Of a stretch of 64,000 nucleotides of DNA, positions 252 to 55,992 are shown in pieces. The notes under the pieces are model-generated. The model worked only from the letters and a program-made list of their open reading frames with translations, searched no databases and was not told the origin of the DNA. A program made the translations under genes and the position numbers. The stretch is from Bacteroidota bacterium (GTDB lineage: Bacteria > Bacteroidota > Bacteroidia > JAHEXY01), in NCBI GenBank assembly GCA_023251875.1, contig JAHEXY010000004.1:130359-194358 (forward strand). The letters are read 5' to 3'. Position 1 is the first letter of the stretch. The number at the start of each line of letters is the position of its first letter.

Positions 252-3200
252 ATGTCATTGTTTCAAAAAACAGTAGTCAAAAAATATACTAAACAACTCG
301 ATTCACAAAAGATTCAAGAAGCTTATGCCCTTTTTCAAGCTTATTTTTTAAATTCTGCCATACAAGAGAACATTAGAGAAGCCAAGGAAGAACAATTTCA
401 AGAAGGATTTTTAAGAGAATTGTTTGGTAACATTTTAGGCTATACATTAAATCCCATCCCTAATTTTAATCTCACAACAGAACTCAAAAATACAGCCAAT
501 AGCAAAAAAGTTGATGGCGCTATTTTAATTGAAAATAAAGCCATTGCTGTAATAGAACTAAAAGGTACCGATACCACAGACCTTGCAAAAATTGAAGCGC
601 AAGCTTTCGGTTATAAGAATAATCAATCGCATTGTACCTATGTAATTACTTCTAATTTTGAAAAACTACGCTTCTATATCGATAATGCAATTGAATTTAT
701 AGAATTCAATTTATTTAAGCTGAATAGAGAAGAATTTAATTTGCTTTGGCTATGCCTATCATTAAAAAGTATTGAACAAAATATTCCAAAAAGAATTAAA
801 GACGAATCGGTAAGCCATGAGGATGTAATTACAAAAAAGCTATATAATGATTATTCCGTTTTTAAAAGAGAACTGCATCAAAATTTAGTGAAGCTAAATC
901 CCCAATACCAAGCAATAGAACTTTTTAAAAAATCACAAAAACTTTTAGACCGCTTTCTTTTTATATTTTTTGCCGAAGACCGACAATTACTACCCACCAA
1001 CTTGATTTTTAGAATAAACAAAGAATGGCAGCAATTAAGGCAAATGCGTATTGAAGTATCGTTGTATGATAGATATAAAATTTACTTTAACGATTTAAAC
1101 AAAGGCGCAATAGTTAAATTACCCGCTTTTAGTGAAACCGCTTCGCAACAAAAAGAAGAATTTCAAATTTTTGCTTACAATGGCGGCTTATTTGAAGAAG
1201 ATACAATATTGAACGACATAAAAATTGATGATGCCTTACTTTTTAAACATTCTGAAATTTTAAGCAATTATGATTTTGTAAGTGAAATTGATGTAAATAT
1301 ATTGGGGCATATTTTCGAAAATTCATTAAATGAATTGGATGAAATAAAAGCACAATTAGATGGGCAAATAATAGACAAAAGCAAAACCAAAAGAAAAAAG
1401 GATGGCGTTTTTTACACACCCAAATACATAACCAAATACATTGTAGAAAATACTGTTGGTAAATTGTGTGTAGAAAAAAAAGAAAGCATACAACTCATAG
1501 AAGAACAATATACCAATGATAAAAAGAAAACAAGCAAAACAAAAAAAGAACTACTTGATAAATTAAATACCTACCGCAGTTGGTTACTTCAACTTACCAT
1601 TTGCGACCCGGCCTGTGGCTCAGGCGCATTTTTAAACCAAGCGCTTGATTTTTTAATTAACGAACACCGCTATATTGATGAACTGCAAGCCAAACTATTA
1701 GGCGCATCTTTAATTTTAAGCGATATAGAAAACAGCATATTAGAAAATAATTTATTTGGTGTAGATATTAACGAAGAAAGTGTAGAAATAGCTAAACTCT
1801 CTTTATGGTTACGCACAGCCCAACCCAATAGAAAACTGAATGATTTAAGTAATAATATTAAATGCGGCAATTCTTTAATTGATGATCCGGAAGTGGCAGG
1901 GGATAAGGCGTTTGATTGGTATGCAGAGTTTCCAAAAGTATTTCCTCGTTATAAAAATAAAAAGAAAGAAAATGCCGTAGTTGAAGTTAAAAAGAATGCT
2001 GATGGAGATTCATTAGGTAAATACATTGATGATTCTCATGGATTATTTAATGAATTTCATGAACCTCCTGCACCATACTCCTATAAAGAAAATAGCAAAG
2101 GTTTTGAGAAGCATGGTTTTGATGTAGTGATTGGCAATCCGCCTTATGTGAGACAAGAATTAATAGGAAATTATAAAGATTACTTTTCTAAAAATTACAA
2201 AGTATTTAATTTTTCAAGTGATCTATTTGCTTATTTCTATGAAAAAGCATTTTCGCTTTTAAAACAACATGGTATATTGGGTTTCATATCAAATACGTTT
2301 GATAAAACAACTGCAGGGATTAATTTAAGAGGTTATTTAAAAAACAATACCCAATTTAAAAGACTTATAGATTTCACCGAAGTTCAAATATTTGAAGGTG
2401 CTACAACTTACCCGATAATATTAATTGCCCAAAATGAGGATTCAGAAAATAATACATTTGAGTATATAAAAATTCCTAGAACAACTAATACTATTACAAT
2501 TGATATTGATTTTTATTCTGCTGTTTCGGTTAAACAACAATCATTGGATAACTCTAACTGGATTTTTAAATCAAATGTGGCAAATCTCATTTTAGCTAAA
2601 ATTCAAAAGCATAAATCAATACGAGATAAATTTGGAAAATGTTATTATGGAGTAAAAACTGCCTTAAATGAAGCTTTCATTATACAAAATGACATTGAAA
2701 TTGATGAGCATGTCAAACCGATTTATGAAGGCAAAGAACTTGATAAGTGGATAACACGGCCAGCTAAACAAAAACTACTTTTATTTAAAAGTAAATGGAC
2801 TAAAGAAAAATATGGAAATGATATTAACGAAAAGCTAGCATTAGAAAAATTAAATAAAGATTATGCAAAACATTTTGAAATACTTTTACCTTTTGAAGAT
2901 CCAGCAAAAAAAAGATATGACAAAGGTGATTTTTGGTGGGAGTTACGAAATTGTGCATACTACAATTTATTTGACAAGTCTAAAATAATATTCCCAAATC
3001 TCCAGAATAAAAATAAATTTTGTTTCGATGATAAAGGTGTTTTTGTAAATGCTCCTGCTGTATTTACACCAACAGAAAGTAAAGCATTGTTAGCTATTCT
3101 AAATTCAAAATTAGTTTGGTATTATTTAACCTCTATTTGTGTAGTTAGAAATGGTGGTTATATTGAAGTAAAACCACAGTATTTTGAACAAATACCAATT

Positions 3201-3578
3201 CCTGATTTTGATTTATCAAACATGTCTCCATTGGCAACAAATGCTAATGGAATAATAGAACTAACCCAACAGCAACAAGAAATTAATACAAAATTTATTC
3301 GTTTTCTATCCTCAAAATTCATCTCAATAAATATTAATAGGAAACTTGAAAACTGGTTTACATTATCATTTAATGAATTTGCTAAAGAGATTGTAAAACA
3401 AAAATTTAAGTTAACTATATCTGAACAAGAGGAATGGCTCACTTATTTTGAAGAGAAGAAGAAAAATATGAGTGATATGCTAATTCAAATTAGAAAGAGA
3501 GAAAAAGAAATTGATAAAATGGTTTATGAATTATATGAATTATCAGAAGATGAAATTAAAATCGTGGAGGGGGAATGA
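252..3578 (+). CDS. Type IIG (MmeI-like) fused restriction endonuclease / N6-adenine DNA methyltransferase
   Basis: 1108-aa ORF. N-terminal PD-(D/E)xK-like motif VDGAILIENKAIAVIELKG (D...ExK) as in MmeI-family nuclease domains; gamma-class MTase motif I DPACGSGAFL and motif IV NPPY (VIGNPPYVRQE); long C-terminal region consistent with a target-recognition domain; no Walker A or helicase motifs noticed. Confidence 0.8.
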   Translation: MSLFQKTVVKKYTKQLDSQKIQEAYALFQAYFLNSAIQENIREAKEEQFQEGFLRELFGNILGYTLNPIPNFNLTTELKNTANSKKVDGAILIENKAIAVIELKGTDTTDLAKIEAQAFGYKNNQSHCTYVITSNFEKLRFYIDNAIEFIEFNLFKLNREEFNLLWLCLSLKSIEQNIPKRIKDESVSHEDVITKKLYNDYSVFKRELHQNLVKLNPQYQAIELFKKSQKLLDRFLFIFFAEDRQLLPTNLIFRINKEWQQLRQMRIEVSLYDRYKIYFNDLNKGAIVKLPAFSETASQQKEEFQIFAYNGGLFEEDTILNDIKIDDALLFKHSEILSNYDFVSEIDVNILGHIFENSLNELDEIKAQLDGQIIDKSKTKRKKDGVFYTPKYITKYIVENTVGKLCVEKKESIQLIEEQYTNDKKKTSKTKKELLDKLNTYRSWLLQLTICDPACGSGAFLNQALDFLINEHRYIDELQAKLLGASLILSDIENSILENNLFGVDINEESVEIAKLSLWLRTAQPNRKLNDLSNNIKCGNSLIDDPEVAGDKAFDWYAEFPKVFPRYKNKKKENAVVEVKKNADGDSLGKYIDDSHGLFNEFHEPPAPYSYKENSKGFEKHGFDVVIGNPPYVRQELIGNYKDYFSKNYKVFNFSSDLFAYFYEKAFSLLKQHGILGFISNTFDKTTAGINLRGYLKNNTQFKRLIDFTEVQIFEGATTYPIILIAQNEDSENNTFEYIKIPRTTNTITIDIDFYSAVSVKQQSLDNSNWIFKSNVANLILAKIQKHKSIRDKFGKCYYGVKTALNEAFIIQNDIEIDEHVKPIYEGKELDKWITRPAKQKLLLFKSKWTKEKYGNDINEKLALEKLNKDYAKHFEILLPFEDPAKKRYDKGDFWWELRNCAYYNLFDKSKIIFPNLQNKNKFCFDDKGVFVNAPAVFTPTESKALLAILNSKLVWYYLTSICVVRNGGYIEVKPQYFEQIPIPDFDLSNMSPLATNANGIIELTQQQQEINTKFIRFLSSKFISININRKLENWFTLSFNEFAKEIVKQKFKLTISEQEEWLTYFEEKKKNMSDMLIQIRKREKEIDKMVYELYELSEDEIKIVEGE

Positions 3579-4267: not shown

Positions 4268-4933
4268 TCATGGCTAAAGCCCTTTATACCCTACATTGTT
4301 TTTTTCTCCGCCATAAATGGCGGAGTTAGTTGAGCGAGAACGGTATAGTTAATGCAAATAAAGATAAATGCAGAATACCAACCCCAGCTTAAAAGCTGGG
4401 GGGCATAAGAATAAGCAAGAAGTAAAATGGGCTTTAGCCCAAAAAAATAAAATATTATGGCTTTTGTAAAAATATGGGTACACGCAGTTTGGGGCACAAA
4501 AAATAGATTTCCTTTTCTTGTTAATGGAGTTAAACAACAAGTAATTCAGCATATAAAAGAGAATGCCATAAAAAAGCAAATTTATATTGATTGTATTGAT
4601 GGCCATACAGAACATCTTCATGCATTAATAGCTCTTAATGCAGATAGAGATATTGCCAAAACAATGCAATTGATAAAAGGCGAATCTACACATTGGATAA
4701 ATCAACAAAAAATTACACGAAGTAAATTTGAATGGGCCGATGAATATTTTGCAGTTTCGGTAAGTGAATCAATGTTAGATAAAGTAAGAGAATATATCCA
4801 TGGACAAGAAGAACATCATAAAAAAACAACTTTTACCGAAGAGTATAATAATTTTATAGGCAAATATAATTTTCAAAATCATGGCTAAAGCCAATTCCAT
4901 TTTTCAGTCTATTTTAATCTCCGCCATAAATGG
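4268..4933 (+). mobile_element. REPtron-like unit: RAYT gene flanked by REP hairpins and ~55-bp direct repeats
   Basis: Left flank 4268-4325 and right flank 4878-4933 both contain ATCATGGCTAAAGCC...TCTCCGCCATAAATGG; palindromes CTCCGCCATAAATGGCGGAG (4306-4325), CCCCAGCTTAAAAGCTGGGG (4382-4401), GGGCTTTAGCCC (4429-4440) lie between the left flank and the RAYT gene. Confidence 0.65.
4457..4888 (+). CDS. REP-associated tyrosine transposase (RAYT; IS200/IS605-like Y1 HUH transposase)
   Basis: 143 aa; HUH motif HTEHLHALI; N-terminal HAVWGTKNR; C-terminal catalytic-Tyr region VREYIHGQEEHH; flanked by REP hairpins. Confidence 0.8.
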   Translation: MAFVKIWVHAVWGTKNRFPFLVNGVKQQVIQHIKENAIKKQIYIDCIDGHTEHLHALIALNADRDIAKTMQLIKGESTHWINQQKITRSKFEWADEYFAVSVSESMLDKVREYIHGQEEHHKKTTFTEEYNNFIGKYNFQNHG

Positions 4934-17774: not shown

Positions 17775-18482
17775 CTATTTTTTAATTGCATCTATAAAAT
17801 ATTTCCACAAATTATCGCTTGCAGGAGGCATAGCTTCAAGACTAATTAAGTTTTTAGTTACAGGATGTAAAAATTCTGCTCTGCGTGAATGTAAACTAAT
17901 AGAAGCATCTTCGTTTGAGCGTGGTGCTCCATATTTTAAATCTCCTTTAATTTCGCAACCAATATGAGACAGTTGAGCTCTTATTTGATGATGCCTTCCT
18001 GTTTTTAAAGTAATTTCTAGTAAATGATAATGATCAGAACTTGCAATTAATTTATAATCTAATTCAGCCCGTTTAGAATCACGAATTAATTTATCGTAAA
18101 CGTATGACTTATTATTTTTCTCGTTCTTTTTAAGATAATGGACTAAAGTACCTGATGGTGGTTCCGGTTTATTTTTAACAATGGCCCAATATGTTTTTTT
18201 TATTTCTTTCAAGCGAAACATTTCATTAATGCGCGTAAGCGCTTTGCCTGTTTTTGCAAAAATAATAATGCCACTTACGGGCCTATCTAAGCGATGTGTA
18301 ACACCAAGAAAAACTTCTCCAGGTTTGTTGTATTTTTTCTTTATGTATTGTTTGATGTGTTCTGAAAGAGGAGTATCACCGGTTTTATCTCCCTGCACAA
18401 TTTCCGATGGCCTTTTATTTACAATTATAAGGTGGTTGTCTTCAAATAAAATTTCAGGAATGATATCCATGTTGTTTTTCAT
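17775..18482 (-). CDS. RluA-family RNA pseudouridine synthase
   Basis: Catalytic motif HRLDRPVSGIIIFAKT. Confidence 0.85.
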   Translation of the reverse strand: MKNNMDIIPEILFEDNHLIIVNKRPSEIVQGDKTGDTPLSEHIKQYIKKKYNKPGEVFLGVTHRLDRPVSGIIIFAKTGKALTRINEMFRLKEIKKTYWAIVKNKPEPPSGTLVHYLKKNEKNNKSYVYDKLIRDSKRAELDYKLIASSDHYHLLEITLKTGRHHQIRAQLSHIGCEIKGDLKYGAPRSNEDASISLHSRRAEFLHPVTKNLISLEAMPPASDNLWKYFIDAIKK

Positions 18483-18554
18483 TATTCCAACAAATATACA
18501 AGATTAAGGTACAATTTGATTGTAATTTATAGACTAAATCAGAGGCAAGCTTTT

Positions 18555-18581
18555 ATAAAGTTTCAAAATTTGAAACTTTAT
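18555..18581. promoter_or_regulatory. 27-bp perfect palindrome ATAAAGTTTCAAA-A-TTTGAAACTTTAT upstream of higBA (candidate operator)
   Basis: 13-bp arms around a single central base, 29 bp upstream of the higB start; the same core recurs at 43154-43198. Confidence 0.45.
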
Positions 18582-18609
18582 TGCTATTTTTACGTAAAAT
18601 GTTTATAGC

Positions 18610-18918
18610 ATGAATATTATTGCAAGAGGTACTTTGTGGTATTATATGAAAAGATATTCTCTTGCAGCTAAACAATTAGAATTGTGGCACAACGATGTAA
18701 GAAAACTTAAATGGAAGAAATCAACTGATGTATTAGTTGATTATCCTAAAGCAAGAACCATAAAAAACAATAGGGTTATTTTTCCCATTTTGGGAAATGC
18801 ATATTGTTTGATAGTAGGAGTTGATTATCGTTTCGAAAGAGTGTTTATTATTTTCTTCGGCACGCATGCTGAATACGATGAAATAAATGCAGAAACAATT
18901 GATTATAAAAAGCCATAA
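18610..18918 (+). CDS. higB: Type II toxin-antitoxin system toxin, HigB family (RelE superfamily)
   Basis: 102 aa; pattern GNAYCLIVGVDYRFERVFIIFFGTHAEYDE resembles the HigB GNxYRLI...THxEYDK signature; sits upstream of an HTH antitoxin, the reversed order typical of HigBA. Confidence 0.75.
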   Translation: MNIIARGTLWYYMKRYSLAAKQLELWHNDVRKLKWKKSTDVLVDYPKARTIKNNRVIFPILGNAYCLIVGVDYRFERVFIIFFGTHAEYDEINAETIDYKKP

Positions 18919-18929
18919 ATATATAAGCT

Positions 18930-19304
18930 ATGAATATAAAACCTATAAAAAACAAAAAAGACTATACCCTTGCTTTAGAAAAGATATATGCTTTTATGAA
19001 TAAAGATGTTAAAAAAGGAAGTATTGAAGCTGACGAATATGATATCCTTTGTACGCTTGTAGAAAAATACGAAAATGAATATTATCCAATAGCTCCCCCG
19101 CATCCAATTGAAGCCATTAAATTTAGGATGGAACAATTAGATATGAAAACACAAGATTTGATTGATATAATTGGAAATAAAAGTCGTGCCTCTAAAATAT
19201 TAAATAAAAAAGAGGGCTTGACTCTTAAAATGATTCGTAAAATACATGATGCGCTAAAAATTCCTTTAGATATTTTGGTTATGGAATATGCTTTACATTC
19301 TTAA
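18930..19304 (+). CDS. higA: Type II toxin-antitoxin system antitoxin, HigA family (HTH)
   Basis: 124 aa; MNIKPIKNKKDY...PIEAIKFRMEQLDMKTQDLIDIIGNKSRASKILNKKEGLTLKMIRKIHDALKIP matches the HigA HTH antitoxin pattern; 11 bp downstream of higB. Confidence 0.75.
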   Translation: MNIKPIKNKKDYTLALEKIYAFMNKDVKKGSIEADEYDILCTLVEKYENEYYPIAPPHPIEAIKFRMEQLDMKTQDLIDIIGNKSRASKILNKKEGLTLKMIRKIHDALKIPLDILVMEYALHS

Positions 19305-19954
19305 TTTTCCGTATTAGCACTATAAGAATAACCCACTTCCACTTCTTTCGCTTTGTGTTCAAATGAAATTCTAATATAAAACTCATCGTATTTTTCATGT
19401 GGGAAAGAATAAAATTTTACATCTTCTCCTTTTGTAATATCATATTCATGCGTTTCTATATCTTTTTTCATTAGTTCATAATCGCCTTTATCAAATAAGT
19501 CTTTAGCATAGCTTAATGCTGTATTAAACCAAAATACACTATCATCAATTGAATTATCTTTCGTTACTGTTTTTAGATTAATGGAAAATTCGAAATAATG
19601 GCAACCACCATGGTGTATAGTTAAAGTATCTTTTCCATCAAGCAAAAGCACGGCTTCTTTTTGTTGGTTGTTCCATTTGTAATTAGCAAACTGTGGCTTA
19701 TCTTTTAAAAAATCCGAAGTTTGTTGTTTCATATCAAACTCACAATGCTCTATTTTTTTCTTAGGGCTAACTTTTGAAATTACTTTTTGAATAAACGTTT
19801 GCGAGCTATCTTTTATTTTTCCTGAAGCATCATTGCTTTCTGAATTTGAACTTCCGCAAGAATTAAGAATAATAGACAAAAGTATAAAGGCAAACCCAAT
19901 CCCTTTTAATTGAAAAGCAGCTAAACAAAAGCTCTTAGTATTGTTCTTTTTCAT
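19301..19954 (-). CDS. Hypothetical lipoprotein
   Basis: Signal peptide with lipobox (ILNSCGSS). Confidence 0.5.
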
Positions 19955-25809: not shown

Positions 25810-25895
25810 GGCTTTCTAAAAATTACAATTTTTGTGTCCCTCTCTTTGAGAGGGATTAAGGGAGAGAACATAAATAAAATAATTTTTAGAAAGCC
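25810..25895. repeat. MITE-like element (~85 bp) with 15-bp terminal inverted repeats GGCTTTCTAAAAATT / AATTTTTAGAAAGCC and internal CCCTCTC hairpin
   Basis: TIRs read directly; core TCCCTCTCTTTGAGAGGGATTAAGGGAGAGA; homologous copies at 33954-34032 and 55910-55992. Confidence 0.6.
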
Positions 25896-33953: not shown

Positions 33954-34032
33954 GGCTTTTAAAAAATTTATTATTTATTTCCTCTCCCTACCCTCTCAAA
34001 GAGAGGGACAAAAATGATAATTTTTAAAAGCC
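33954..34032. repeat. MITE-like element copy (TIRs GGCTTTTAAAAAATTT / AATTTTTAAAAGCC; core CCTCTCCCTACCCTCTCAAAGAGAGGGA)
   Basis: Same architecture as 25810-25895 and 55910-55992, in inverted orientation relative to the 25810 copy. Confidence 0.6.
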
Positions 34033-36562: not shown

Positions 36563-37150
36563 CTATTTGGTTATAAACTTAGGCTGATGAGCCGGCCTTG
36601 TATTTACATTTCCTTTTTGAATAGTTAAACGATAATTTAATTTGCCTTCTTTCTTTTCAATAATCACAGGAACAGTATCACTTACTACATCTATACCGGT
36701 TTTATAACTTTCATCATAATGCATGTGATAGCCTTCAGGATCGCAAATAAGCATAAAATAAGTATCCATTCCATCAGCACCGGGCACACCATTGGGTTCT
36801 CCCGGTTGACCAAGGTTAATCCATATTTCATAAGTACCGTACCAATATTCTTCCGGATTTACAAAATATTCAAAATTATAAGTACCGGGAGCAGTTTCAT
36901 AATAATAACCTAAATCAGGGTTATATGGAATAGACGAATTATCATCCCAATAACTATAAGGAGCATACGTTTCGTAATCAACACCAAAAAATGCCAAACC
37001 ATCACGACCAAATGGTCCCGGAGCATTGTTTACTACCACAACATCACATCCATTAAAAAAGAGCAGGCTTATTATTGATAATAAGAGTACAAGAAATTTT
37101 ATTTGAGTTTTCATAAAACAAAAATGATTGGTTCTACTGTGTAGAACCAA
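36563..37150 (-). CDS. Hypothetical lipoprotein
   Basis: Signal peptide with lipobox (LFFNGC); Tyr/Pro-rich mature region. Confidence 0.5.
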   Translation of the reverse strand: MVLHSRTNHFCFMKTQIKFLVLLLSIISLLFFNGCDVVVVNNAPGPFGRDGLAFFGVDYETYAPYSYWDDNSSIPYNPDLGYYYETAPGTYNFEYFVNPEEYWYGTYEIWINLGQPGEPNGVPGADGMDTYFMLICDPEGYHMHYDESYKTGIDVVSDTVPVIIEKKEGKLNYRLTIQKGNVNTRPAHQPKFITK

Positions 37151-37367
37151 TCATCGTGCCAGAAATTAAGCCCTCTCCCTCAATCCCTCTCCCAAAAGGA
37201 GAGAGAAGAAAGCCTTGAGCCTAGTATATATTATAACTTCTTAGACTTACTATTTTAAAAACATAAAAAAAATGAATTTTAAAAAATCAGACTTTCAAAT
37301 CAAAGTACATTCTTTAATCAGAGAACTTCCCTTCTCCCTTCGGGAGAAGGGCTAGGGATGAGGGCTT

Positions 37368-41914: not shown

Positions 41915-41972
41915 CCACAGAGACGCGGAGACACAGAGTATTCTATTTCTCTGTGTCTTTGTGCCTCTGTGG
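41915..41972 (+). terminator. Long imperfect hairpin downstream of selD (CCACAGAGACGCGGAGACACAGAG ... CTCTGTGTCTTTGTGCCTCTGTGG)
   Basis: Nested complementary 8-bp segments read directly after the selD stop. Confidence 0.45.
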
Positions 41973-41987
41973 TTGCAATTATTAAAT

Positions 41988-43106
41988 TTGAAAAAAGTAA
42001 TCATATCCGTATCAAACGACCTTAGCACCGACCAACGGGTTCATAAAGTTTGCATAGCTCTTTCTCAATGGAATTGTGATATTTTATTAGTGGGTTGTTT
42101 TCGCGAAACAAAAATTCCACTTGAAAGAAAATACAAGATACATCGACTTTCTCCTGTTTTTAAAAAGGGTCCATTTTTTTATGCTGAATTTAATATCCGA
42201 CTCTTTTTATTTTTGCTTTTTCATAACGCAGATTTTATTGTAGCCAATGATTTAGATACTTTACTTGCAAATTATCTTGCATCTAAACTAAAAAGCATCC
42301 CTGTAGTTTATGATAGTCATGAATTGTTTACTGAAGTGCCTGAATTGGCCCATAGAAAATTTGTGAAGAGTATTTGGGAACGTATTGAGAAATTTATTTT
42401 CCCAAAACTAAAATACGTTTATACCGTTAATAATACCATAGCCAATATATTTAAGCAAAAATATAATGTAGAGGTAAAAGTAATTAGAAATGTATCTCAT
42501 AAAAATATGGTAACAAAATTTGATTCGAAAAATGAATTAGGATTGCCTACTGATAAAAAAATTATCATTTTACAAGGAGCTTTTATTAATGTAGAAAGAG
42601 GTGCCGAAGAAGCTGTGCTTGCCATGCAATATGTCGAAGGCGCTATTTTATTGATAATTGGAGGCGGTGATGTATTTAATAAATTGAGAAAGATGGCTGT
42701 TGATTTAGACTTAACGCCTAAAGTAAAGTTTATTGATAAAGTTCCATATAATCGCTTAATGCATTATACCGCTAATGCAGATATTGGATTGTCTCTCGAT
42801 AAAGACACTAACTTAAATTATAAATATAGCCTACCCAATAAATTATTCGATTACATACAGGCAGGAGTTCCTGTTTTGGTTTCCAACTTGGTTGAACCAA
42901 AAAAAATTATTTCGGAATTTAACATTGGCGAAATTATAGAGAGCCATAATCCCAAACACATTGCTGAAAAAATAATGCACATGCTTTCAGCTACTGATAA
43001 GATTGAATTATGGAAAACCAACCTAAAAAAAGCTGCTGAAGTATATTGCTGGGAAAATGAGGAGCAGAAGTTAAAGGAGATTTATAAAAAAGTAATTGAA
43101 GATTGA
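41988..43106 (+). CDS. Glycosyltransferase family 4 (group 1)
   Basis: GT-B fold C-terminal half. Start uncertain: the track ORF begins at a GTG at 41961 inside the selD hairpin; the TTG at 41988 gives MKKVIISVSNDL. Confidence 0.65.
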   Translation: MKKVIISVSNDLSTDQRVHKVCIALSQWNCDILLVGCFRETKIPLERKYKIHRLSPVFKKGPFFYAEFNIRLFLFLLFHNADFIVANDLDTLLANYLASKLKSIPVVYDSHELFTEVPELAHRKFVKSIWERIEKFIFPKLKYVYTVNNTIANIFKQKYNVEVKVIRNVSHKNMVTKFDSKNELGLPTDKKIIILQGAFINVERGAEEAVLAMQYVEGAILLIIGGGDVFNKLRKMAVDLDLTPKVKFIDKVPYNRLMHYTANADIGLSLDKDTNLNYKYSLPNKLFDYIQAGVPVLVSNLVEPKKIISEFNIGEIIESHNPKHIAEKIMHMLSATDKIELWKTNLKKAAEVYCWENEEQKLKEIYKKVIED

Positions 43107-43153: not shown

Positions 43154-43198
43154 TTTGCGGTGATAAAGTTTCAAAATTTGAAACTTTATCACCGCAAA
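43154..43198. promoter_or_regulatory. 45-bp perfect palindrome containing the same core as the higBA-upstream palindrome
   Basis: TTTGCGGTGATAAAGTTTCAAA-A-TTTGAAACTTTATCACCGCAAA between convergent genes; core identical to 18555-18581. Confidence 0.45.
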
Positions 43199-43214: not shown

Positions 43215-43877
43215 TTAATAAAGATTTGAATTCCCGAAAGGCAAAACTGCTTCTACATTTTTTAAAGAAATATATACAGTATCTGCTAAAGACGCATCAT
43301 AATAAAACAAATTACAATCAAATTGAACTTTAACTTTTCGCATGCGCTCTGACTCTTCCTTTTCATCAACATTGTACCATTCATAGTAATCCTCTACTGA
43401 TAAAATGGTAAATGAGTTTCCACTTTGATTCGTTATTGAACGATATTGATTATAATTTTCATCATAATATGTTATTTCAATTTTTCCATAAGGATTTTGA
43501 TCGGATTCAGCAATTTGATAATTGCCAACTCTCAAAACAGAATCAATGTTAGAAGAAGGTATACTATCATCATTTATATCCACATATATTCCATTTCTAT
43601 ATTCGTATGTTATTCCGGTATATTTTGCTGTTATCATTTTTGAAACAAAAATTTCTGATCCATAATATAAATGATTATTTGGATCAAAGGCATCAACCGT
43701 ATTGCTATAAGATTCAAATCCATTAACCCCAGCTGTATAATCAAAACTTTCACTTCCAATTTCTCCTCTTATATAAAAAACAGGATCAATTGGTAAATCT
43801 ATTGTTACATCTTTTTTACAAGACATTTGTATCATAACTATCGCTAACAATACAACTAAAATGTTTTTATTTTTCAT
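43215..43877 (-). CDS. Hypothetical lipoprotein
   Basis: Signal peptide with lipobox (IQMSCKKD). Confidence 0.5.
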   Translation of the reverse strand: MKNKNILVVLLAIVMIQMSCKKDVTIDLPIDPVFYIRGEIGSESFDYTAGVNGFESYSNTVDAFDPNNHLYYGSEIFVSKMITAKYTGITYEYRNGIYVDINDDSIPSSNIDSVLRVGNYQIAESDQNPYGKIEITYYDENYNQYRSITNQSGNSFTILSVEDYYEWYNVDEKEESERMRKVKVQFDCNLFYYDASLADTVYISLKNVEAVLPFGNSNLY

Positions 43878-46201: not shown

Positions 46202-46434
46202 AAGCTAATTTAATTTGGCGTTTGTGTTGGCTTTCTGTTTATATAGACAGTTCAAAAACCAGAAAGGTTAGTGAGTATTATAAATTATTTTTAGAATAAT
46301 TAAAATGACAACAAAAAAGGGAGATTATTAGGGGCTATAAAATTAAGAAAAATATACCTGAAATTTAGTTCTAATTATTACATTGCCTCATTAATCAATA
46401 AATTTATATTTATTGCAAATATTCTTATAGTAAT

Positions 46435-54565: not shown

Positions 54566-54942
54566 GTCCAAAAAAAATCCTTTTGGTACCTTAAATAATG
54601 ACATTACTCTACGAGGTATGAATACGAACGGCCTTGCGTTTCTACAATACTATATGCCCTACAGGCAATTAATTAAAAATACGACATAGGCGTTAAAGTT
54701 TTGTAGAAGGCTATAGGTTGGGCATTAACACTTCCCGTAGCAATTTCTGTAGCGGCTGTTGTAATAAAACTTTACCATCATAAAGATATTATTGCAGATT
54801 TTAAAATATTTGCCATTCCAATCTTAATTGGAATTTGTTTAGCCGTACCATTAATGTATGTTACCTACAGAAACTTATATGAAAAAAACATGGATGAAGT
54901 AAAATCTATGTTAGAAGATTTAAAAGAATAATATTACAAAAT

Positions 54943-55103
54943 GGCTTCGGGAGCCTCAGCCATCGATGTAATTGGCAACTGAGGCTCTCGAAGTCACAAA
55001 AAACAAATCCTTCAAAGTTTAAAAAACCTTGAAGGATTTTTATAGAACTTGGCTTCGAGAACCTCAGCCAACATATACAAGGGTGCCTGAGGTTCCCGAA
55101 GGC
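54943..55103. repeat. Two paralogous ~52-nt hairpins separated by a perfect terminator-like hairpin
   Basis: Unit 1 54943-54994 and unit 2 55051-55103 (GGCTTCG(G/A)GA(G/A)CCTCAGCC ... CTGAGG(C/T)TC(T/C)CGAAG), with a G-C to A-T compensatory change in the stem; middle hairpin AAATCCTTCAAAGTTTAAAAAACCTTGAAGGATTT (55005-55039). Confidence 0.6.
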
Positions 55104-55909: not shown

Positions 55910-55992
55910 GGCTTTCAAAAAATTATATTTTTCTATTCCTCTCCCTTAATCCCTCTCTAAAGAGGGATACAAATTGTAATTTTTAAAAAGCC
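55910..55992. repeat. MITE-like element copy (TIRs GGCTTTCAAAAAATT / AATTTTTAAAAAGCC; core CCTCTCCCTTAATCCCTCTCTAAAGAGGGA)
   Basis: Third copy of the ~85-bp element seen at 25810-25895 and 33954-34032. Confidence 0.6.

Follow-up and report, generated by a model that had tools for sequence, protein, structure and literature searches.

A HigBA-family toxin-antitoxin module with a predicted variant operator, a probable solo operator and a possibly attenuated toxin in a Bacteroidota genome

Within a 64,000-nucleotide stretch of a Bacteroidota genome (contig JAHEXY010000004.1; the whole stretch analyzed is referred to here as the window), positions 18555-19304 very probably make up a self-contained type II toxin-antitoxin module of the Escherichia coli K-12 HigBA (YgjN/YgjM, PF09907) family, as judged from the sequence. 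The toxin gene comes first, followed on the same strand and after 11 bp by the antitoxin gene, and a perfect palindrome that is the predicted operator lies upstream of both (Table 1). The original prediction of a toxin-first HigB-HigA pair of 102 and 124 residues was borne out, the open reading frames being as it had described them and both families being matched. As a toxin-antitoxin module the locus is routine, since the family counts thousands of members. No paralogues of HigA or HigB were found elsewhere in the window.

The toxin was assigned by sequence profile and by predicted fold. HigB matches PF09907 ('HigB_toxin') over profile positions 2-74 of 74 with a score of 82 bits, the cut-off being 27 (E-value 3.7e-23), which is the outcome of the profile comparison that the original prediction had proposed as a check; the Pfam search gave no match to PF05015 at an E-value of 0.01 or better. 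When the toxin served as query, a word-indexed search for homologues found the toxin alone, and an exhaustive search of cluster representatives was used in its place, which yielded 1921 representatives at an E-value of 1e-3 or better, all of them less than 50% identical to the query. From these, a profile was built of 89 representatives plus the window protein, with the E. coli sequences excluded; an earlier comparison with the PDB, for which the toxin profile had included the E. coli sequence, was repeated without it. The profile lacking that sequence matches the HigB proteins of E. coli K-12 and Shigella (6kml, 5ycl, 5ifg) at about 1e-15, the best value being 6e-16. Using the same alignment, an AlphaFold2 model was obtained with a predicted local distance difference test score (pLDDT) of 94.3, for which Foldseek places 5ifg_A at the top (E-value 2.7e-7, template modeling (TM) score 0.82, root-mean-square deviation 1.4 Å, 93 columns). 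The best fold matches, 5ifg, 6kml and 5ycl, have TM scores of 0.77-0.82, and those to RelE, YoeB and HigB2 are much weaker. The RelE/HigB fold on which the original prediction had staked its assignment is thus present in the model.

For the antitoxin, 1871 homologues were found, several of which are labeled HigA-family antitoxin by their sources. A HigA profile of 31 sequences matches 5ycl_A and 5ifg_B in the PDB (E-value 4e-9, query residues 5-113), and the top fold matches of the HigA model (pLDDT 88) are to E. coli K-12 HigA (6jq4, 6kml_B) over 120 columns. The TM scores of these matches are low (0.43-0.46), which may be attributed to a differing relative orientation of the two domains in the model. 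After E. coli HigA come helix-turn-helix (HTH) domains of the XRE type, aligned over the C-terminal 70 residues; the HTH_3 match of HigA alone is weak (E-value 0.012), and the fold match of Rts1-type HigA is partial, covering the HTH only. The genomic loci of 80 HigA homologues, most of them in Bacteroidota, were collected (homologous modules, L005-L084); in about 65 of these a PF09907-type toxin gene stands immediately 5' of higA. The HigA family is present on 480 plasmid records, and a comparison of the module DNA with a phage collection gave no match. Across the homologous loci, the codon aligned with the toxin Met1 is TTG or GTG in 52 of 60 (predicted starts), while the window toxin begins with ATG; this may represent a family habit of weak initiation of toxin translation.

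The palindrome upstream of the toxin gene, of the form ATAAAGTTTCAAA-A-TTTGAAACTTTAT, has 13-nt arms that are 100% complementary around a 1-nt center. It was verified over its full 27 bp at 18555-18581, and its distance to the higB start codon was measured as 28 bp (18582-18609), one less than the 29 bp given in the original prediction. The palindrome is not a product of chance, because in 40 simulations of the 64-kb window under a first-order Markov model no perfect palindrome had arms of at least 13 nt, the longest arms being of 9-12 nt. Considering the suggestion that it serves as an operator, we aligned the 130 bp upstream of the toxin starts and obtained a family dyad with the consensus AAAGTT(C/A)CCAA-T-TTGG(G/T)AACTTTT. 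The pattern TT.CC.N5.GG.AA is present in 49 of 60 of these upstream regions, all from Bacteroidota loci, at 6.28 per kb, whereas the remaining 314 kb of the same loci contain 2 sites, an enrichment of approximately 1000-fold. The window palindrome is in register with this dyad and agrees with the family operator at 19 of 25 positions; the bases in common are T(-7), T(-6), C(-4), G(+4), A(+6), A(+7) and C(+8), together with the flanking AAAG/CTTT. The E. coli K-12 higBA promoter holds the same dyad (CATCCGTTGCCA-ATC-TGGCAACGGATG), with an imperfect second site after it, and TTNCC-N5-GGNAA occurs twice upstream of a Vibrio plasmid copy and once upstream of a cyanobacterial (Geminocystis) plasmid copy. 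One operator architecture is therefore common to this HigA family in Bacteroidota, Gammaproteobacteria and Cyanobacteria.

The spacing of the promoter elements follows the same pattern. The center of the palindrome lies 42 bp from the higB ATG, in a family with a median of 40 and a range of 26-49. The -7 box of the window, TATTTTTA, begins 4 nt past operator position +12 and 3 nt past the end of the palindrome, and resembles TAnnTTTG, reportedly the Bacteroidetes -7 promoter consensus (Bayley et al. 2000). An exact TAnnTTTG was found 2-5 nt beyond operator position +12 in 41 of 52 homologous loci, and variants of the box ending in A occur in L040 and L055. The palindrome at 18555-18581 sits between divergent genes, has a stem of A+T only and is followed by no T-run, so that it does not resemble a terminator. 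Taken with the register, these features suggest that 18555-18581 is the operator of the module, a lineage-specific variant of the family operator to which HigA would bind.

This variant departs from the family at the variable positions +/-5 and, symmetrically in both arms, at -3/+3, where C/G is present in 52 of 52 family operators and in those of E. coli, Vibrio and Geminocystis, and A/T in the window. The predicted recognition helix of HigA spans approximately residues 84-91, and in or just after it the window protein has K89, E95 and G96, at positions where the family has Glu (51 of 52), Arg (52 of 52) and Lys (51 of 52). The HigA relatives in L085, L114 and L115, which are 77-86% identical to the window protein, share K89 and, wherever they can be read, E95 and G96. 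L115 is the only close relative with an upstream region available, and there the variant operator is kept at 23 of 23 positions, with diverged flanks. The HigA changes E89K, R95E and K96G and the change at operator +/-3 probably represent a co-evolved change of specificity, and the natural operator and HTH variants offer a ready pair with which DNA recognition by this HigA family could be mapped. At operator +/-5, the HigA columns that covary most with the choice between C and A are 83, 72 and 87, in or beside the HTH, a covariation confounded by phylogeny and to be taken as a hint. The 'RG' variants of HigA (P0075/L086), considered as further carriers of the variant operator, have the standard TCCCA...TGGGA. 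A metagenome-wide scan for the palindrome core returned 16 contigs, all of them unrelated, being random sites or satellite-like repeats, and without higBA in any case, and a viral scan for the core found nothing.

A second, identical copy of the 27-mer, missed in the original prediction, lies 24.6 kb from the higBA promoter, at 43163-43189. Here it is framed by TTTGCGGTG and CACCGCAAA to give a 45-bp perfect palindrome, located between the convergent 3' ends of a glycosyltransferase gene and a 220-aa gene at a site where toxin-antitoxin genes are absent. Around 43154-43198 no similarity to higBA or to its -7 box was found beyond the dyad plus 1-3 nt. No further copies of the 27-mer, with up to 4 mismatches allowed, were present over the window and the 8.7 kb past its right end (approximately 72.7 kb in total). 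The hairpin that the 45-bp palindrome could form has a predicted energy of -31.7/-32.3 kcal/mol, with z about -8.5 to -8.9, and no T-run stands beside it; an intrinsic terminator was rejected for both palindromes on this ground. An origin for the second copy is suggested by L114, a metagenome contig whose higA is 82% identical to that of the window in nucleotides and 86% in protein. This higA ends 58 bp from a convergent orthologue of the window glycosyltransferase gene; the alignment of L114 366-1006 with window 43109-42474 covers 641 nt, has 79.6% nucleotide identity and extends to the stop codon. In this close relative the module thus stands where the window has the palindrome alone. Module and flank are similarly diverged in L114, which fits vertical inheritance of that arrangement. 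Judged by the position of higA in L114, 43154-43198 is probably a solo operator, the relic of an earlier higBA position. The 9-bp inverted duplication of its flanks suggests a hairpin or template-switch event at a deletion junction.

That both palindromes are instead copies of a dispersed repeat (a repetitive extragenic palindromic (REP)-like element, hairpin or terminator), one of which happens to sit in the higBA promoter and is no HigA site, is very unlikely indeed. Two identical 27-mers in one region, the second between convergent genes, where REPs and terminators are usually found, would fit such a repeat, as would the presence in the window of an IS200-like Y1 transposase gene (4457-4888) and the fact that contig L104 breaks within the second palindrome copy. 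But the promoter copy lies in register with the family operator, at distances from the -7 box and the start codon that are usual in the family; it also stands between divergent genes, neither copy is followed by a T-run, and the arrangement in L114 accounts for the second. A REP element with its associated tyrosine transposase was rejected, the 27-mer having two copies in approximately 72.7 kb and the hairpins adjacent to the Y1 transposase gene being of other sequence. It is also unlikely, though less so, that 43154-43198 works as a further HigA target or as a decoy, kept by selection, and is not an inert relic. The two copies agree at all 27 of their 27 bp, within the conserved core and outside it alike, and cease to match precisely where the dyad ends, and the 45-bp symmetry is far above chance; antitoxins with extra chromosomal targets exist, MqsA and Pseudomonas aeruginosa HigA among them. 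Nevertheless, the 45-bp palindrome is downstream of both its neighbors and has no -7 box on either side, a recent deletion or template switch would produce the same identity without selection, and all the contigs found to carry the second-copy site are 100% identical to the window. Quite unlikely, in our estimate, is a fuller version in which a specificity-switched HigA serves both its own promoter and the 45-bp palindrome, and a module whose toxin is attenuated by R66C would be turning into an ordinary transcription factor with a small regulon. If this were true, bound HigA, or the hairpin, would act at the 45-bp palindrome as a roadblock, insulator or decoy between convergent operons.

The state of the toxin raises another alternative, namely that the pair is decaying or domesticated, HigB(R66C) being non-toxic or weakly toxic and HigA persisting mainly as an autoregulated DNA-binding protein; we regard this as possible, if on the doubtful side. 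The residues conserved in the toxin family (R55, F58, G62-N63, G84-T85-H86 and Y89-D90) are all present in the window protein, with the exception that R66 is replaced by Cys. The usual residue here is Arg, found in 146 of the 149 cluster representatives, E. coli HigB (R68) and the two sister toxins, L085 (CGT) and L115 (CGC), and the window codon differs from that of L085 by a single C-to-T transition. Position 66 is the sole column conserved at 85% or more at which the window toxin departs from its family. The Arg or Lys found at position 81 in 120 of 149 representatives is also absent, here from the whole window sub-lineage. By analogy, arginines of the beta-sheet are required for RNase activity or toxicity in other HigB families (PMC7984235, PMC10880633), and the sister module L115 carries a nonsense codon in each of its two genes. 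On the other side, the higB reading frame is intact and keeps the C-terminal H86/Y89/D90 motif; in SehA, H88 and Y91 are among the residues mutated and the critical ones are mostly on the C-terminal helix (bioRxiv 10.1101/2024.07.09.602740). Over 84 codons, higB of the window and of L085 show 31 synonymous and 14 non-synonymous codon differences, which implies purifying selection in the past and until recently. In the literature examined, no documented role for Arg66 in PF09907 toxins was located. The replacement of a near-invariant Arg makes the toxicity of HigB uncertain and suggests an attenuated toxin, and in annotation HigB should be flagged as possibly inactive.

Other observations weigh against reading the locus as a working module with its own operator and a relic of a former site. 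The -7 box of the window carries one mismatch, and a -33 element was not identified at the window higBA promoter. The operator is without the C/G that is otherwise invariant at +/-3, and HigA binding to it may be weak or nil. In L115 the variant operator is kept despite the nonsense codons in both genes, and because of these codons its conservation cannot be credited to current HigA binding. The toxin, with Cys in place of an Arg found in 98% of representatives and no Arg or Lys at position 81, may be non-toxic. As for the solo operator, the evidence for a relic comes from one contig, L114, which at 1019 nt falls short of higB and the operator.

The original prediction that the module had been acquired as an accessory element agrees with the empty sites found in relatives. 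Homologues of the lipoprotein-like protein of the right flank, 59-67% identical, were placed on three contigs (L105-L107), where panB, the lipoprotein-like gene and the rluA-family gene are contiguous on one strand, the last two being 12-58 bp apart and without higBA between them. The adjacency of the flanking genes in these contigs identifies the higBA module as an insertion. Homology between the window and L115 begins at 18557 (L115 position 98), and that with L085 and L114 continues until 19299, at the higA stop codon; these limits imply that the unit shared between settings is essentially 18555-19304. At least three different settings of the module were seen, namely the window site, L085, where it lies beside an unrelated glycosyltransferase gene, and L114. 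L085, the closest relative, ends within higB and holds no operator. The G+C content of the module, 28-29% against 31-36% around it, is too slight a dip to carry weight. At the borders of the module there is an imperfect inverted repeat (18493-18508 and 19300-19315, 75% complementary), which was dismissed as chance because one of its arms lies within conserved C-terminal codons of the lipoprotein-like gene.

L115 152-735 is 77% identical in nucleotides to the module and has nonsense codons in higB (codon 47, TAA) and higA (codon 88), but its variant operator is undamaged; it seems to be a copy of the module in decay. Together, R66C and the L115 nonsense codons point to a lineage whose module moves and decays, and the close relatives offer snapshots of the movement and decay of a cassette: an intact copy, a copy at another site, a solo operator, a missense change and a double nonsense.

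Of the flanking genes, the upstream pseudouridine synthase gene was confirmed as a minus-strand member of the RluA family. Downstream, the predicted convergent gene is present as a 217-aa open reading frame, but its description as a lipoprotein gene corresponds to an N-terminal signal-plus-Cys sequence pattern only, and the protein has no match in Pfam. The ATG at 18470 (M5) gives the RluA-family protein an N-terminus as long as in L105-L107, and this second ATG is probably the true start, by comparison with these relatives, so that the start codon needs correcting. A perfect Bacteroidota -7 box, TATATTTG, precedes the rluA-family gene at 18498-18491 on the minus strand; the insertion seems to have parted this gene from a former operon and to have left it with its own promoter here. 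At the other border, the stop codon of higA (TAA, plus strand) and that of the lipoprotein-like gene (TAA, minus strand) overlap in TTAA at 19301-19304, an overlap that leaves no room for a terminator between the two genes.

Table 1. Features of the higBA module, its surroundings and the second palindrome, in window coordinates
Feature	Positions	Strand	Description
RluA-family pseudouridine synthase gene, left flank	17775-18482	-	PF00849, E-value 1.5e-34
Inserted segment, ~830 bp	18471-19300		Promoter region, higB and higA; absent from the junctions of three relatives
27-bp perfect palindrome, predicted HigA operator	18555-18581		13+1+13; core TTTCA-N5-TGAAA
-7 box TATTTTTA	18585-18592	+	One mismatch to TAnnTTTG
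higB	18610-18918	+	102 aa, ATG start; RelE-superfamily toxin, PF09907 (E. coli K-12 YgjN) family
HigB codon 66, TGT (Cys)	18805-18807	+	Near-invariant Arg in the family
higA	18930-19304	+	124 aa, ATG start; N-terminal helical domain, C-terminal XRE-type HTH
Lipoprotein-like gene, 217 aa, right flank	19301-19954	-	Signal-plus-Cys N-terminus
Glycosyltransferase gene	41961-43106	+	PF00534; orthologue in L114 convergent with higA
45-bp perfect palindrome	43154-43198		TTTGCGGTG + identical 27-mer (43163-43189) + CACCGCAAA
220-aa gene	43215-43877	-	Convergent neighbor of the 45-bp palindrome

Other repeats and hairpins were recorded in the window, the whole 64 kb of which gave no Rfam match at gathering thresholds. 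The similar G+C-rich hairpins CCCAGCCTTAAGGCTGGG and CCCAGCTTAAAAGCTGGG (115-132 and 4383-4400) bracket an MmeI-like restriction-modification gene (252-3578) and a 229-aa gene, and the IS200-like Y1 transposase gene (PF01797, E-value 2e-23) at 4457-4888 follows immediately after the second hairpin; this arrangement may be a Y1-transposase-associated cassette. Short G+C-rich hairpin-like repeats of the CCCTCTC...GAGAGGG type are located at 25835-25865, 33991-34010 and 55939-55957, and may form a REP-like or terminator family unrelated in sequence to the operator. A long perfect palindrome at 37124-37154, ATGATTGGTTCTAC-TGT-GTAGAACCAATCAT, has 14-nt arms and a 3-nt loop. The 51-nt intergenic segment at 46227-46277 (minus strand) is 84% identical to L085 689-739, just 3' of higA, and is without an Rfam match, and a 26-nt hairpin downstream of the L114 higA (L114 327-352) is 92% identical to window 54942-54967.

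On the basis of these comparisons, the following mechanism may be proposed. From one Bacteroidota-type promoter, higB and higA would be transcribed as a bicistronic mRNA with a short leader, its predicted 5' end falling at about 18597-18600. HigB, by homology, would be a ribosome-dependent mRNA endonuclease, neutralized by the N-terminal domain of HigA, while a HigA dimer would bind through its C-terminal HTH to the 27-bp dyad abutting the -7 box and thus repress its own operon. In this lineage the operator would have changed in both arms at an otherwise invariant position, alongside E89K, R95E and K96G in HigA. An earlier copy of the module would have been lost at 43163-43189, leaving a solo operator behind, and template switching at the hairpin may have lengthened this relic to the 45-bp perfect palindrome.

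The closest characterized systems are E. coli K-12 HigB-HigA (5IFG, 6KML, 6JQ4) and Shigella HigBA (5YCL), which like the window module have the toxin gene first. E. coli HigB, whose fold matches that of the window toxin with a TM score of 0.82, is about 22% identical to it in sequence, and E. coli HigA has the same N-terminal helical domain and C-terminal XRE HTH. For E. coli HigBA, toxicity, translation-dependent cleavage of mRNA and HigA repression of a single promoter have been described (PMC2814082). That promoter is of the sigma-70 type and has two operators, a TTNCC-N5-GGNAA dyad and an imperfect site, whereas the window promoter is of the Bacteroidota type, with a -7 box, and has a single operator, TTTCA...TGAAA, with A/T at +/-3; in E. 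coli higB and higA overlap by 4 bp, whereas in the window they are 11 bp apart. K89, E95 and G96 of HigA and the toxin Cys that corresponds to R68 of E. coli HigB also set the window apart. SehA-SehB of Salmonella belongs to the same family, with identities to the E. coli proteins of 40% for SehA (HigB) and 46% for SehB (HigA); SehB binds its own promoter in electrophoretic mobility shift assays via its C-terminal HTH and represses it, and its N-terminal part dimerizes (PMC7160566). Unlike the window module, SehAB is an enterobacterial, virulence-linked locus. HigBA of the Proteus vulgaris plasmid Rts1 shares with the window module the name, the toxin-first order, a RelE-superfamily toxin and an XRE HTH antitoxin that binds palindromic operators, but its toxin is of the PF05015 type and the HTH of its HigA is N-terminal (PMC7160566). 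A recent classification lists PF09907 as 'PF_HigB', separate from the Rts1 'HigB-like' PF05015 (Gerdes 2025, PMC11980606). The Bacteroidota higBA loci (L005-L084), the Vibrio and Geminocystis plasmid copies and the sister modules L085, L114 and L115 have the same architecture, operator position and -7 spacing. Most members of the family have a toxin of 97 aa, an antitoxin of 118 aa, a CC/GG operator core and a TTG or GTG toxin start, and the window module differs from them in its ATG start, in short C-terminal extensions on both proteins and in a CA/TG core. It is thus a further member of a well-known family, to which it adds a variant operator with a matching HTH variant, a probable solo operator and a possibly attenuated toxin.

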